A DNA stretch of 64,000 nucleotides from Candidatus Hydrogenedentales bacterium (GTDB lineage: Bacteria; Hydrogenedentota; Hydrogenedentia; Hydrogenedentales; SLHB01). The position numbers and the translations under genes are program-made. The DNA is taken from NCBI GenBank assembly GCA_050950105.1, contig JBMNGZ010000005.1:684168-748167 (forward strand). The letters run 5' to 3'. This document shows, piece by piece, positions 2,207 through 45,040 of the stretch. The stretch's first letter is position 1, and every line of letters starts with the position of its first letter. Below the pieces are notes generated by a model that saw only the letters and a program-made list of their open reading frames with translations, made no database searches and was not told where the DNA came from.

Positions 2207-3430
2207 TTACGGGGCGCTGTCTTTGAATACCCGTCGCAGCGCCTCCAGATAGGCCATGCCGTTGCGGGTGTCCGGTTCAAGATAGCTGCCTTCGGTCCAT
2301 TCGTTCCAGCAATTGATGGTGATGATGCGCTTCGACGGAGGCAGCGTATCCGCGAGCGCTCTGACCGCACGCAGCCCCTCTTCGAAGGCCTGGGGGTCAT
2401 TCTCCGAGATCGTCGCCATGAAGGGGTACCCGGAGTACGTAAACTCATTGTCCAAATGGCAGCGGGGCGACGAGTCCCAGCCCATGGTCACGTTGGGGAA
2501 ATACGGCACGGGATACCGCGGGGCGGCCTCGTTCCAATGTTCGACGTATTGGTCCCGCACGTAAGCGTAGGGCGTTTGAGGAAATTGCGGCAGCGGGACG
2601 TGGTGGATCCAGACATACGACGTGACGCTGTCGAAGCCCAGCAGCGGCACAAGCTCCTCCGGTTTGGATACCGCGGTCTCACCCGGCAGGATGCGCACGC
2701 CAAAGGTCACGGCGTTCAGATGCAGGCCCGCGAACCCCGCCGCGATGGTCTTTTCGCGGAACCGCTCGAGCGCCGCGCGGGTGGCCTCGAGACTTCCGAA
2801 GCTCTGGATGAGGGTATGCAGTTCATAGACCGAAAAGTAAGGGCAGCCGTCGATTTGCCAGTGGCAGGGGTGTTTGAAATAGGTCTCGATAATGTAGTCG
2901 GTCATCTGCTCAAACGTTTCCGGCGTCACCGTGCCCGGATACAGCACGGCGCTCGGTTTGTCAGAGCGCGCGGGATGGATGTCCAGCCAGTCGTGATTGG
3001 CCCACATCAGGGCGAATTTCATGCGATCGCGGTTCGTGGCCTTCATGAAGCCGTCTTCCAGGCCTCGCTGCAGGAACGGACCGTCGTCATACCAGTACCA
3101 GTCAAAGATAAACACGTCGACCCCGTGGTCGGCCGCGGCCGTGATCTTTGCGGCCATCGCTTCGGGATCGGATTCGTCGGTATAGCCCCAGAGCGGCACA
3201 TTCGGCTGTTGATGGCCCTCGAAGCGCGGCCGGGACGTTTTGACCAATTCCCATTCTGTCCAGCCTTCGCCGTGCTGCTTCGCGTTGCGCGCGTCCGGAT
3301 GGTAGTTGGGGAAATAATAGGCGGCAACCGTATACCTGTTGGGCATGGACTGTTCCGTTTCGGGTGTTTGCGCCGATTCAACTGCGCCGTGCGTGTAGAA
3401 AATAGTCAAGGTCAACAGTGCGGTATACAT
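2207..3430 (-). CDS. Secreted WbsX-like / GH99-fold protein (PF14307-like)
   Basis: Signal peptide present. N-terminal AAYYFPNYHPDARNAKQHGEGWTEWELV resembles the WbsX 'YLPQFH...WWGKGFTEW' motif. Assignment from memory of motifs only. Confidence 0.5.
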   Translation of the reverse strand: MYTALLTLTIFYTHGAVESAQTPETEQSMPNRYTVAAYYFPNYHPDARNAKQHGEGWTEWELVKTSRPRFEGHQQPNVPLWGYTDESDPEAMAAKITAAADHGVDVFIFDWYWYDDGPFLQRGLEDGFMKATNRDRMKFALMWANHDWLDIHPARSDKPSAVLYPGTVTPETFEQMTDYIIETYFKHPCHWQIDGCPYFSVYELHTLIQSFGSLEATRAALERFREKTIAAGFAGLHLNAVTFGVRILPGETAVSKPEELVPLLGFDSVTSYVWIHHVPLPQFPQTPYAYVRDQYVEHWNEAAPRYPVPYFPNVTMGWDSSPRCHLDNEFTYSGYPFMATISENDPQAFEEGLRAVRALADTLPPSKRIITINCWNEWTEGSYLEPDTRNGMAYLEALRRVFKDSAP

Positions 3431-3568
3431 GGTGTTTCTCCCTGCCAGCGTTGGGCATTAGCTTAGCCGCTGGAACAACCGTAAGCAAACCGCCGAATGC
3501 GGCATAATTGAGCGCAAAACACACGAGAAACAGCATCGTATCGGCCAAATAGCCGGGAACGGCTGGCA

Positions 3569-3989
3569 CATTCACGTTCTAAGTGCACTGGAAGCGATTT
3601 TTCGTTTCTGCAGGAAGATTTCAGTGGGTGCTTGCTATCCGAGGCATTTTGGGGGCGATTGTTGAGTTCATCGACTATTTCCAGGAGTTTTTCTAATGTA
3701 GGGGTGGCCCACCGAGGCCGCGTATCCGGATCGTCCCTGCGGCTGCGTTAAAGAAGGGAAGACCCCGTGTCTGCCCATCCGGATAGCCCCAGCACATCTG
3801 GCGATCCCCTGGCGTTCGCGCTCCGGTTGTAGGGGCAGACCCCTGTGTCTGCCCATCCGGATAGCCCCAGTGGCTGCCTTTAAGAAGGGCAGACACAGGG
3901 GTCTGCCCTTACGCGCGGCGTAACTCCCGAACAAGACTCATCTACAGAAATGGGCCCAACCCAAAAACCGTGCACTTTAGTATTAGAAT
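3569..3989 (-). mobile_element. Degenerate IS30-family element, ~420 bp, transposase gene deleted. Structure: IRR (CATTCACGTTCTAAGTGCAC), antisense remnant of the last ~40 transposase codons (frameshifted), three GTAG-initiated REP-like palindromes, ~60 bp of 5' UTR, and IRL (rc CATTCTAATACTAAAGTGCACGG).
   Basis: Imperfect terminal inverted repeats, 16/21 match. Minus-strand translation gives TLEKLLEIVDELNNRPQN..., which matches the IS30 transposase C-terminal LNNRPRK motif region. The ends are shared with locus 2 at 43343 and 43679. Confidence 0.55.
3700..3912. repeat. Cluster of REP-like GC-rich palindromic units, consensus GTAGGGGCAGACCCC(C)GTGTCTGCCCATCCGGATAGCCCCAG plus inverted variants
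   Basis: A direct ~37-bp repeat occurs twice (3756-3792 and 3833-3869), with an inverted copy at 3873-3910. Each unit has an 8-bp stem GGGCAGAC/GTCTGCCC. The same units recur at 43.8-45.0 kb. Confidence 0.75.
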
Positions 3990-4085
3990 GCGCGGCTTTT
4001 GTCGGTGGAAGAAATCTTACGTCGAGACTGCTACAATGCCCTCGATGACATCTCGGAAAAATCCACCATCGGGGAGGACGGATAA

Positions 4086-41560: not shown

Positions 41561-41819
41561 GCGCGCCCTCCGGGTTCTTTTCTCGTAACTATAATACTTT
41601 TTATTACCAAACGCAACGGCGGCTCCGACTATTCCAGGAAAGGCCCGAAATCTGGCGCCCGCAATCGCCATTGAAGAGCTGCTCGTAAATTTGCGTTCAC
41701 CGCACTTTTTGCTGTTTAATCAAATCGATCACAAGCCCACTAAGTTGAAGAAAGCCAAAGTGCGCCGGGAAAAGCCGAAAAATCGGGTTGCTGGCGCACG
41801 AACGCGGGGAGGACGCACC

Positions 41820-42705
41820 ATGACTACGACTCGAATGCTTTCCGTTGCCTTACTGGGAGCTGTCTTGTGCTTTTCGATCCTGGCTGCAGAGTCAGAGCCG
41901 GCCGTAGAACATGTGGTCGTCATTGGCGTGGACGGCATGACGGCCAAATCGCTCGAGGCTGCCGAGACGCCCAACATGCACGCGCTGATGGCAACGGGCT
42001 CATACACGCGTGCGGCGCACGCGGTCAAACCGACCGTGAGCGGCCCGAACTGGGGTTCCATGCTCATGGGGAGCAAACCCGAAACCCACGGCGTGGTGAA
42101 TAACAACTGGACGCTCGACACGGAGAATCCGTTTCCAACCGTCTTTACGGCCTTGCGCGCGGCCGAGCCGGAGGCCACCGTGGTCGCGGCCTACGAATGG
42201 GGCTCTTTTGGCCGCTTGTTCGTCGATGAAGACGTGACCCCAGCGTATCGGCGTGGATAAGGAAGCCATTGAAAACGATACCTCAGAAAACGCGGCTTCC
42301 CGCTACATCGCCACGCAGGTGGCCGAGTGCATCAAAGAGAAAAAACCTCGGCTGACCTTTATCCATCTCGACCTGGTCGATCACGCGGGCCATTCCCATG
42401 TCTACGATTCGGAAAAATATAACGCGACGGTTGGCGAAGCGGACAAGCTCGTCGGCCTCATTGTGAAAGGCATCGACGACGCCGGCATCCGAAAAAACAC
42501 CGCCATCTTCGTCGTCTCCGATCACGGCGGCATCGACAAAGGCCACGGCGGCGATACGCCCGAAGAAACCATCGTGCCGTGGATCGTGTCGGGGCGCGGG
42601 CATAGCCCAGGGCGCCGCCATCCCCGACGGCATCAGCGTCGCCCCAGACCGGGCCCACCATCGCGGCCCTCCTGGGCGCCGAATTGCCCGCGCGCTGGAC
42701 CATGA
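41820..42705 (+). CDS. Secreted type I phosphodiesterase / nucleotide pyrophosphatase (AlkP-core superfamily). Frame break near 42250.
   Basis: Signal peptide present. VVIGVDGMTAKSLE...TPNMHALMATGSYT ... (second frame) IHLDLVDHAGHSHVYDSEKYNATVGEADKLVG...VVSDHGG matches the PF01663 pattern. Confidence 0.6.
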
Positions 42706-42757
42706 AGCCCGTGACCCAGATTTTGAAAAAGTAAAAATCTCCCGACACCACCCGCAC

Positions 42758-42960
42758 GACATCGCCCCGGGGACTGCGACATAACGGCACTCCCCGGGGT
42801 ATTACGACAGGACATCGCTCCCGGGGACTGCGGCATAGCGGCACTCCTCGGGGCATTACGACATGACATCGCCCCCGGGGACTGCGGTATAACGACACTC
42901 CTCGGGGCATTACGACCCGACATTGCCCCCGGGATGGCTCCGCACGGAGCCTCCCGGGCC
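42758..42960. repeat. 54-bp tandem hairpin minisatellite, ~3.7 copies. Unit GACATCGCCCCGGGGACTGCGACATAACGGCACTCCCCGGGGTATTACGA.
   Basis: Copies at 42758-42808, 42809-42862 and 42863-42916, plus a partial copy. Each unit carries an inverted repeat CCCCGGGGACTGCG...GCACTCCCCGGGG. No unique spacers. Confidence 0.8.
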
Positions 42961-43195: not shown

Positions 43196-43274
43196 TGGTC
43201 GGGGCGGCGGGATTCGAACCCGCGACCTCCTGCTCCCAAAGCAGGCACGCTAAACCGGGCTGCGCTACGCCCCG
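43196..43274 (-). tRNA. tRNA-Pro (anticodon UGG)
   Basis: Reverse complement CGGGGCGTAGCGCAGCCCGGTTTAGCGTGCCTGCTTTGGGAGCAGGAGGTCGCGGGTTCGAATCCCGCCGCCCCGACCA. 7-bp acceptor stem, anticodon stem CCTGC/GCAGG, loop TTTGGGA with TGG at positions 34-36, T-loop GGTTCGAATCC, encoded CCA. Confidence 0.85.
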
Positions 43275-43342: not shown

Positions 43343-43678
43343 CATTCTAATACTGAGTGCACGGTTCCTGGGTTTAGCCCTTTCCCGTCGGAGCCGTCCG
43401 TCGCTCACCGTGAGCGGCGGCGGACGATGACAGAGGGAAGGACGGCCTTTTTCCTGTTGGTGAGTCTTGAGCGAGGAGGTGGAAAAGAAAAAGACATCGG
43501 GACCCATTCGGTATTCTTGGAGATAGCAACCAACCAAGAGCGAAAGGAATCCCGATGTCCTACACCCATCTTACCCCAATGGAGCGCGCGAAGATCGAGT
43601 TTTTTTTCGCACAGGGATGGAGCTACACTGCGATTGCCTGCCAATTGGGCCGGCATCGCATGACCATTAGCCGCGGTA
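43343..43678 (+). mobile_element. IS30-family IS, 5' portion only: IRL CATTCTAATACTGAGTGCACGG, ~190-bp leader, first 39 transposase codons
   Basis: The IRL matches the rc of the locus-1 right end (21/23). The leader is ~75% similar to locus-1 internal sequence. It is truncated by insertion of the next element at 43679. Confidence 0.55.
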
Positions 43679-43691
43679 CATTCACGTTTTA
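43555..43691 (+). pseudogene. IS30-family transposase N-terminal HTH fragment (truncated after the TISR motif)
   Basis: MSYTHLTPMERAKIEFFFAQGWSYTAIACQLGRHRMTISR|GTFTF*. Matches the IS30-family N-terminal consensus MxYxHLTxxER...LGR..STISRE. Diverges exactly where the second element's IRR begins. Confidence 0.65.
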
Positions 43692-45040
43692 AGTGCGCGC
43701 AAGGCGATTTTCCGTTTTTGCAGGAAGATTTCATTGGCTGTTCGATATCCGAGGCATTTTGGGGGCCGGTTGTTTAGTCCATAGACTATCTCCTGAAGTT
43801 TCTCTAATGTAGGGGCAACCTCCTGGGTCGCCCATCCGGATTGTATTGGCAACCCCCACGCGCTGCAGTAACCTGGATGCACCAGGGCAACCCCAACGCG
43901 GCAGCGTTCCGGAATGTAGGGGCAGACCCCCGTGTCTGCCCATCCGGATCGCCCCTGCGGCTGCGTTAAAGAAGGGCAGGCACAGGGGCCTGCGCCTACG
44001 CGCTGCGCAAAGCAGTCCCCGCGCGGCCGGCCATCCGGATCGCTCACGCACTTCGACGGGACGCTGTGAGCTGGAAGTCACACCCCCCAAAATCCAAGCT
44101 GCAAAACTCCACCTCCGAATCGGTTGACGCCGATTCTCCTCTGCCCGCGGAGGATGGGTAGCCTGGGAGCGCCGACGTCCTCGTCGGCACACGGTTCAGC
44201 CCCGCCCGCGTGGGACAGGTGCGCCGCATCTCAATCTCCAGTTCGGGTTCTTATGTCCCCCGCTGATGGAGCAAAGTATGCCTCGCTGGCCAGCACCGGT
44301 TCCGGGTCTTCTGTCCCCCGCGGGCGGGGGTGGACACGCGCCCCGCGTGGCCGGGGGTGGATTGTGCGGGCAGACACGGGGGTCTGTCCCTACGCGCTGC
44401 GTAAAGCAGTCCCCCGCGGTTGCCGTCCGGATTATTTGGGCAACCCCCACGCGCTGCACAACCTGGGTATGTCGCGGCAACCACAACGCGGCAGCGTTCC
44501 GGAATGTAGGGGCAGACCCCCGTGTCTGCCCATCCGGATCGCCCCTGCGGCTGCGTTTAAGAAGGGCAGGCACAGGGGCCTGCCCTATGCGCTGCGCAAA
44601 GCAGTCCCCGCGCGGCCGGCCATCCGGATCGCTCACGCACTTCGACGGGACGCTGCGAGCTGGAAGTCACACCCCAAAATCCAAGCTGCAAAACTCCACC
44701 TCCGAATCGGTTGACGCCGATTCTCCTCTGCCCGCGGAGGATGGGTAGCCTGGGAGCGCCGACGTCCTCGTGCGGCACACGGTTCAGCCCCGCCCGCGTG
44801 GGACAAGTGCGCCGCATCTCAATCTCCAGTTCGGGTTCTTATGTCCCCCGCCTGATGGAGCAAAGTATGCCTCGCTAGCCACCACCGGTTCCGGGTCTTG
44901 TGTCCCCCGCGGGCGGGGGTGGACACGCGTCCCCGCGTGGCCGGGGGTGGATTGTGCGGACAGACACGGGAGTCTGCGCCTACGCGCTGCGCAAAGCAGC
45001 CCTCGCGGTTGCCGTCCGGATTACTTGGGCAAGCCCAACG
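43679..45040 (-). mobile_element. IS30-derived non-autonomous element inserted into the IS30 copy above. Structure: IRR CATTCACGTTTTAAGTGCGC, antisense remnant of the last ~43 transposase codons (…LEKLQEIVYGLNNRPPKCLGYRTANEIFLQKRKIALRALKT*), and a ~1.2-kb array of REP-like palindromes. Right boundary degenerate.
   Basis: The 130-bp IRR plus C-terminal-remnant 'leader' (43679-43812) is ~85% identical to 3569-3705. Its junction with the REP array is identical in both loci (…TCTAATGTAGGGG). LNNRPPKCLGY matches IS30 LNNRPRKTLGF. Confidence 0.55.
43849..45029. repeat. Two tandem copies of a 590-bp unit (43849-44438 and 44439-45029, ~95% identical). Each unit is built from GTAG-initiated REP-like palindromes and CATCCGGAT motifs.
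   Basis: Direct read-through alignment; period 590 bp. Sub-elements include GTAGGGGCAGACCCCCGTGTCTGCCCATCCGGATCGCCCCTG, GAAGGGCAGGCACAGGGGCCTGCGCCTACGCGCTGCG and GCGGGCAGACACGGGGGTCTGTCCCTACGCGCTGCG. A third unit starts and is truncated (GGGCAAGCCCAACG). Confidence 0.8.

Follow-up and report, generated by a model that had tools for sequence, protein, structure and literature searches.

Anatomy and site of the element

A 655-bp intergenic region (3431-4085) between two divergently transcribed genes, in the 64-kb stretch of DNA that we analysed (the window), houses a 422-bp element at 3569-3990 (locus 1; Table 1). Both terminal inverted repeats of this element are present, and it contains no open reading frame with transposase homology. 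An earlier note on this DNA had described the segment 3569-3989 as a shell with IS30-family ends. The start was retained in our alignments, with an extra A at 3568 possible at the outer end of the right inverted repeat (IRR), and the end was moved to 3990. Both of the ends that it quoted were found in the window (chance expectation, 0.00 matches), and they are imperfect repeats as stated: the left inverted repeat (IRL) matches the IRR at only about 15 of 21 positions. The IRL of locus 1 also has a 1-nt insertion relative to other copies. The ends of this IS lineage follow the pattern CATTC, five variable bases and CTAAGTGCACG, which is the same in the full-length relative described below, and the low match between IRL and IRR is the natural pattern of the lineage.

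The last transposase codons were likewise located where the earlier note had read about 40 of them, antisense and frameshifted. Minus-strand translation from 3697 to 3569 yields about 41 codons, consisting of TLEKLLEIVDELNNRP, a -1 frameshift, and then PKCLG, a stop codon, QAPTEIFLQKRKIASSALRT and a second stop codon. This tail is homologous to the C-terminus of the full-length transposase (...VEKINNRPRKCLEYRTPNEVF...ALRA, stop), and its stop codon falls within the IRR. The short 5' leader was also borne out, as 3924-3967 aligns with the leaders of other copies. Given the frameshift, the internal stop codon, the 1-nt insertion in the IRL and 83% identity to the other copy in the window, the copy at locus 1 looks old and is probably inert.

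Table 1. Features of the two IS30-derived loci, of the genes flanking locus 1 and of the full-length relatives. Positions are those of the window unless a contig is named.
Feature	Position	Strand	Remarks
GH99/WbsX-like gene	2207-3430	-	one flank of the intergenic region of locus 1
Complete IS30-derived shell, 422 bp (locus 1)	3569-3990	-	minus strand is the sense strand of the former IS
IRR, CATTCACGTTCTAAGTGCAC	3569-3588	-	aligns with the IRR of every shell and with that of the full-length IS
Transposase tail, last ~41 codons, with frameshift and in-frame stop	3569-3697	-	translation
Degenerate GTAG unit abutting the transposase tail	3698-3723	+	covariance model, 10 bits, not significant
Partial REP-A unit, no GTAG tag	3753-3776	+	covariance model, 13.3 bits
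Head-to-head REP-A doublet (REPIN-like), 84 bp	3829-3912		29-nt arms, 93% complementary
Strong GTAG unit	3829-3854	+	covariance model, 47.9 bits
Strong GTAG unit	3887-3912	-	covariance model, 44 bits
5' leader remnant, 44 nt, start codon gone	3924-3967	-	alignment to leaders of other shells
IRL, reverse complement of CATTCTAATACTAAAGTGCACGG	3968-3990	-	end alignments
GH123-like gene, 1172 aa	4086-7604	+	other flank of the intergenic region of locus 1
IRL of locus 2, CATTCTAATACTGAGTGCACGG	43343-43364	+	
IRL, full leader and first 41 transposase codons (locus 2)	43343-43677	+	
41-codon N-terminal stub, HTH_38 (locus 2)	43555-43677	+	HTH_38, E = 5.8e-10
IRR and 42-codon tail, frame intact (locus 2)	43679-43808	-	orientation opposite to that of the adjoining IRL piece
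Mosaic of REP-A and other palindromic modules (locus 2)	43809-45040		no IRL at the far end
Full-length IS copy, 1231 bp	L018, 6-1236	-	
Full-length IS copy, 1231 bp	L024, 258-1488	+	

The closest syntenic relative of this region is contig L028, in which the neighbouring gene is 83% identical at the amino acid level and the same divergent GH123 gene is present. Its intergenic region is 215 bp long, compared to 655 bp in the window, and alignment detected neither shell nor REP sequence in it. When 3569-3990 was removed, the remaining window sequence aligned across the L028 intergenic region, with homology restarting at 3991, in CGCGGCT, the first base past the end of the IRL. From this alignment we regard L028 as an empty orthologous site and the element at locus 1 as an insertion. 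Conservation between the two intergenic regions (window, 3431-4085; L028, 2786-3000) extends over the 95 bp that precede the GH123-like gene, within which lies a TACAAT box. As this conservation holds for both the filled and the empty site, the shell lies just distal to the likely promoter region of the GH123-like gene. A promoter scan of 3431-4085 returned nothing.

GTAG-tagged palindromes in the interior

The interior of the element is occupied by palindromic units, designated REP-A here. The earlier note had counted three GTAG palindromes; such palindromes are present, and the count becomes two strong units, one partial unit that lacks the tag and one degenerate unit. The palindrome string that it quoted proved to be a blend of two units, the real unit reading ...CCCCTGTG... 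instead. The core GGGCAGAC-N6-GTCTGCCC occurs 7 times in the window, compared to 0.04 occurrences expected. Fifteen units were collected by hand as seeds for the stem analysis and the covariance model, one of them carrying a 1-nt transcription error. Across these units 95.8% of the cells of the 8-bp stem are paired, and two of the eight pairs show double changes (AU to GC or CG, 7 cells).

The two strong units are separated by a 32-nt spacer. Folded as DNA, the element as a whole has a predicted energy of -85.4 kcal/mol (z = -4.8 relative to shuffled sequences). The fold is dominated by the hairpin of this doublet, and the hairpin was retained in the centroid fold. Doublets with the conserved spacer are also found at locus 2 and in the shells from JGI metagenomes. 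The interior units therefore combine a GTAG tag with a GC-rich palindrome of 20-40 nt that shows compensatory stem variation, and 3829-3912 is an inverted doublet able to form a hairpin. This fits the published definition of GTAG REPs and REP doublets, and the claim that REP units lie inside IS30 termini holds. Comparison with Rfam returned only sub-threshold hairpin look-alikes for the element, and the miRNA and plastid models among them were rejected as such.

A covariance-model scan of the whole 64 kb placed every significant REP-A match within the two IS30-linked loci. A strict motif had suggested that these REPs were exclusive to shells; a looser scan and the covariance model ruled this out, as one REP-A doublet lies outside any shell in a related contig, between convergent genes (L001, 2621-2727). 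It is a tail-to-tail pair of REP-A type with compensatory stem variants (GGGAGGC/GCCTGCCC and GGGCGGCC/GGCCGCCC). We also considered whether this pair is a hidden shell remnant, which was ruled out since it has only REP modules in common with the shells and contains no IS30 sequence. The REP-A family, judged by this pair, also exists outside shells. A RAYT gene was not found by tblastn and motif scan of the window and related loci, using an approximate E. coli RAYT as the query; the roughly 241 kb searched are a small part of any genome.

A second IS30-derived locus in the window

The second locus (43343-45040), to which the motif searches led, begins 69 bp from a tRNA-Pro(tgg) gene (43196-43274, minus strand). 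Aligned to the full-length IS, its pieces span 51-276, with positions 1-22 for the IRL itself, as well as 1134-1231; they correspond to transposase residues 1-40 and 292-332 with 54-55% amino acid identity. Within the palindromic mosaic of about 1.2 kb, a segment of about 589 bp is tandemly duplicated (43870-44459 and 44460-45040). The tails of the two window loci are about 81-83% identical, and in both of them the junction between tail and palindromes, TCTAAT/GTAGGGG, falls at exactly the same base. The opposite orientation of the two IS pieces at locus 2 may have come about by inversion of the segment comprising array, tail and IRR within one shell; alternatively, a one-ended copy may have inserted into an older IS stub.

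Two features in the neighbourhood were recorded. A 54-bp tandem repeat (42755-42933; 3.3 copies, 88% matches) lies just upstream of the region of tRNA-Pro and IS30 stub, and its sequence is unrelated to the REP-A units. Two overlapping plus-strand open reading frames in different frames (41691-42260 and 42253-42705) together resemble one phosphodiesterase or alkaline-phosphatase-type gene, and may represent a frameshift or a pseudogene.

Full-length relatives and sister copies

A full-length IS30-family relative is present in other metagenomes, where two 1231-bp copies at different sites (L018 and L024) are 97.6% identical to each other. The 333-aa transposase, in which HTH_38 and rve domains are present, matches the NCBIfam model transpos_IS30 with 281 bits, for a cut-off of 80. 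The IRL of the full-length IS is CATTCTAATACTAAGTGCACGG and the IRR is CATTCAAGCTCTAAGTGCACG. The IRL, leader, N-terminal and C-terminal pieces and IRR of the shells all align to this element, which substantiates the assignment to the IS30 family made in the earlier note: homology to a bona fide IS with an IS30 transposase extends over the ends, the subterminal sequence and both of the pieces retained. Locus 1 itself is too diverged to give a direct match to the full-length IS, and is tied to IS30 through locus 2 and the end alignments.

Locus 1 is not an autonomous IS30, since it retains only about 41 frameshifted C-terminal codons and no HTH plus DDE (rve) transposase. No intact IS30 transposase was found within the window, the only other IS30 coding sequence being the stub at 43555-43677. 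An intact IS30 with the same inverted repeats, which the earlier note had proposed to look for, was obtained from other metagenome records only. When the 41-aa N-terminal stub was scanned with HMMER against 1.84 billion representative proteins, the closest full-length proteins were 58-62% identical, none exceeding 62%, and no close intact parent was found. A protein query made by concatenating the N- and C-terminal pieces returned two short spurious ORFs and no full-length transposase.

Further shells were reached by several routes. P0002, a spurious 64-aa ORF from JGI metagenomes that spans the junction of REP array and tail, led to contigs with complete shells; a look-up of P0001 gave no contig, and an exact 20-mer of the tail (TATCCGAGGCATTTTGGGGG) had no match in genome_contigs. 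A scan with the IRL pattern picked up ten metagenome loci along with four contigs that belong to a single Hydrogenedentota MAG. Sorting by flanking sequence gave nine IRL-bearing sites with distinct flanks: the two full-length copies (L018 and L024), three complete shells, two solo-IRL stubs and the two window loci. Copies with the same ends therefore do occur at different sites in related Hydrogenedentota contigs as well as at locus 2, as the earlier note had anticipated, and their ends are not those of an ordinary REP/BIME structure without IS30 homology. One MAG accounts for four of the nine sites (two complete shells and two solo-IRL remnants), and a single 519-kb contig for three of them (two shells, one of which is cut by the end of the locus as retrieved, and one solo-IRL remnant). 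Two additional copies, L030 and L031, were reached through a REP-array ORF that gave two weak matches in a protein search, and not through the IRL pattern.

The three complete shells are 757-914 bp long and belong to one related organism. A JGI shell starts with the IRL and leader, continues with about 20 N-terminal codons and the REP mosaic, and closes with about 40 C-terminal codons and the IRR. Among the variants (757, 790, 815 and 914 bp), the differences in length correspond to entire REP modules, and the JGI arrays contain a further copy of 29 nt of the tail. Together with the tandem duplication at locus 2, these variants indicate that the arrays evolve by slippage and recombination. L030, from another NCBI MAG, is truncated at the 5' side as locus 1 is, with the leader truncation points agreeing within about 3 nt. 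L031 has the IRR, the tail, the shared junction and an array, and lacks an IRL. One-ended copies (locus 2, L031 and L009) and solo IRLs (L012 and L016) show that there has been much decay and rearrangement.

Both window copies, L031 and the JGI shells of three sites agree in the tail position of the junction with the REP array (CCCCTAC/ATTAGA on the other strand). The bases at this junction vary slightly among other shells, with GCAGGGG (CTGC) in some and a diverged sequence in L011. The 5' junction, in contrast, differs among shells, which keep 41 codons, about 20 codons or the leader only. Shell tails are 80-97% identical to each other, compared to 65-70% identity to the full-length IS; the tail of locus 1 is 80-82% identical to shells elsewhere. 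The IRL is identical to that of the full-length IS at 21-22 of 22 positions in the window loci, L001 and L030, and the adjoining leader is highly diverged. Conservation of the IRL is a circular result for L011-L024, which were found by the IRL pattern, and is not so for the window loci, L001 and L030.

The earlier note had also proposed to look for target-site duplications of 2-3 bp, and we found none at any copy, including the two full-length ones, with several definitions of the ends. The flanks are GGCA and CGCG at locus 1, GCC and TGAG at JGI copies, and CCCA and TGGG at the full-length copies. In the latter case both L018 and L024 have GTCCCA on one side and TGGGG on the other, which constitutes a palindromic target with no direct duplication. 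As the duplication is missing even at intact copies, its absence may be a trait of the lineage.

Origin and dispersal of the shells

We consider it probable, from comparison of the copies, that 3569-3990 arose by deletion from an IS30-family IS as a non-autonomous derivative, for which MITE or mobile insertion cassette would be a fitting name, and that it spread after having been filled with REPs. Copies at unrelated sites, together with presence and absence at one site (L028), are what is seen with such elements. The constant position of the junction between REP array and tail, the varying 5' junction and the clade formed by the shell tails point to one ancestral REP insertion at about codon 291, followed by dispersal and erosion. 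Loss of the transposase, as the earlier note had it, stands; in place of its wording that the transposase was replaced, a REP insertion at about codon 291 with subsequent progressive internal deletion is the better description.

The order of events that we infer, mobilisation in trans included, would be as follows. First, a REP doublet of the GTAG type would have inserted at about codon 291 of the transposase gene. The catalytic core would then have been deleted as the palindromes recombined and slipped, the 5' side being trimmed to differing extents among descendants while the palindromic array grew or shrank. As neither terminal inverted repeat was lost, the shell would have stayed recognisable to the DDE transposase of a related IS30 supplied in trans, which could carry it and the REPs inside it to new sites. 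With 83% identity, the two window copies resemble each other no more than they resemble copies in other genomes, and there is consequently no sign of recent transposition here. Two copies in the JGI organism are about 97% identical, which suggests recent movement in that organism only.

It is quite improbable that locus 1 is instead a wreck formed in situ, in which an ordinary IS30 copy was inactivated after insertion, took up REPs and had its central part deleted in place, without ever moving as a shell, similar wrecks having arisen in parallel elsewhere. The clear decay of locus 1 (frameshift, stop codon and IRL indel) and the lack of a visible target-site duplication are compatible with such a history, and the solo-IRL and one-ended remnants indicate that decay in situ is common in the lineage. 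However, the junction of REP array and tail is identical in both window copies and lies at the same tail position at no fewer than five other sites, locus 1 shares its 5' truncation with L030, and the shell tails form a clade of their own. Parallel origin is unlikely because the same breakpoints would have been needed repeatedly.

That the REPs were the active party is very unlikely. According to this explanation a RAYT-type or other process inserted doublets after ...TCTAAT in IS30 copies, or REP clusters passively amplified the adjoining IS30 sequence, and the IS30 ends played no role. The pair outside shells in L001, the re-duplicated 29 nt of tail in the JGI arrays, and published REP clusters that reiterate pieces of flanking DNA (PMC3733652) would all be in keeping with it. 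Other REP-A units in the arrays, however, are preceded by the unrelated sequences CCGGAAT, CCGGTT and GCGC, and hence there is no conserved REP target. Moreover, complete copies are bounded exactly by IRL and IRR, the alignment with the empty site breaks at the IRL end, and no RAYT was detected in the 241 kb of window and related loci, although this is a weak test. An assembly or binning artefact, with repeats mis-joined in a metagenome-assembled genome, is hardly credible: some related metagenome contigs do end inside arrays or combine flanks inconsistently, but the whole 655-bp intergenic region is 100% identical, with the same genes on both sides, in contig L025 of an independent JGI metagenome assembly.

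Relation to known mobile elements

IS30 of E. coli is bounded by inverted repeats, encodes a DDE transposase and transposes through a circular or dimer intermediate. Target duplications of 2-3 bp are expected in its family. The full-length relative resembles IS30 in size, in its HTH plus DDE transposase, in its imperfect inverted repeats of about 22 bp and in having the stop codon inside the IRR. The window element differs in lacking the transposase, and its lineage differs in lacking visible 2-3 bp duplications.

MITEs and mobile insertion cassettes, including the mosaic Tn3-derived TIMEs, are IS-derived non-autonomous elements (PMC4133298). The window element shares with them IS-like terminal inverted repeats, the absence of a transposase, an unrelated core, occurrence at several sites and presumed mobilisation in trans. 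It differs in that it is IS30-derived and in that its core is a variable array of REP-type palindromes. The shells also differ in ranging from 422 to over 1000 bp, in showing no visible target-site duplications and in their low copy number, with a handful per genome compared to tens to hundreds for a classical MITE. Neither an IS30-derived MITE nor an IS shell filled with REPs was found in the literature searched. The element is by homology an IS30 derivative and an uncommon variation on known MITEs, and structurally its filling belongs to the GTAG REP/REPIN class.

GTAG-tagged REPs consist of the tag and a stem of 6-13 bp, occur as head-to-head dimers 20-100 bp apart and form clusters that reiterate flanking DNA (PMC3733652); REP doublets are the basis of the REPIN concept (PMC3116915). 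Both are mobilised by RAYT (PMC3733652, PMC3116915). The window units likewise carry the GTAG tag, and compensatory changes are seen in their GC-rich stem of 8 bp. They are paired head to head across a 32-nt spacer into doublets that fold as a long hairpin, and their clusters are mosaics in which flanking DNA is reiterated. Unlike published REPs these units are confined within the window to two IS30-linked loci, rather than being scattered downstream of genes, and they are enclosed by the ends of a DDE transposon, with no RAYT found in the weak test described above.

Insertion sequences that target REPs form a third point of comparison, IS1397 being one of them. ISPpu9 of Pseudomonas putida is another that inserts into REPs (PMC12288879, PMC8450116). 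The intimate association of an IS with a REP family is the same here, but the topology is reversed: in that system the IS lies inside the REP, whereas here the REPs lie inside the IS.

In the shells, bacterial mobile DNA of two classes is physically merged, palindromes of REP/REPIN type lying within the shell of a DDE transposon; the understanding of either class is left unchanged. The shells come from a poorly studied candidate phylum, and their copies preserve successive stages, with a 41-codon stub, a 20-codon stub or the leader only. Two questions could be addressed with them as a concrete example: whether a cut-and-paste transposon can carry REP arrays along as hitch-hikers, and in what way arrays of palindromes wear down an element that they have invaded. 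A broader proposal, which we regard as rather unlikely, is that GTAG REP arrays in this Hydrogenedentota lineage are carried mainly by IS30-type shells, and that the shells would constitute a long-lived parasite-of-a-parasite lineage kept mobile by selection on the inverted repeats. If so, a DDE transposase rather than RAYT would be the main vehicle spreading a REP family.

In practice, metagenome assemblies are interrupted by shells of this kind, which also give rise to spurious ORFs (P0001, P0002 and P0124). Swapped flanks were also observed when L007, L013 and L017 were compared with L001. The left flank AGGGGCTCGGCC is joined via the shell to two different right flanks, and the right flank TGAGAACGCG is joined to two different left flanks, reflecting either homologous recombination between shell copies or chimeric metagenome assembly.
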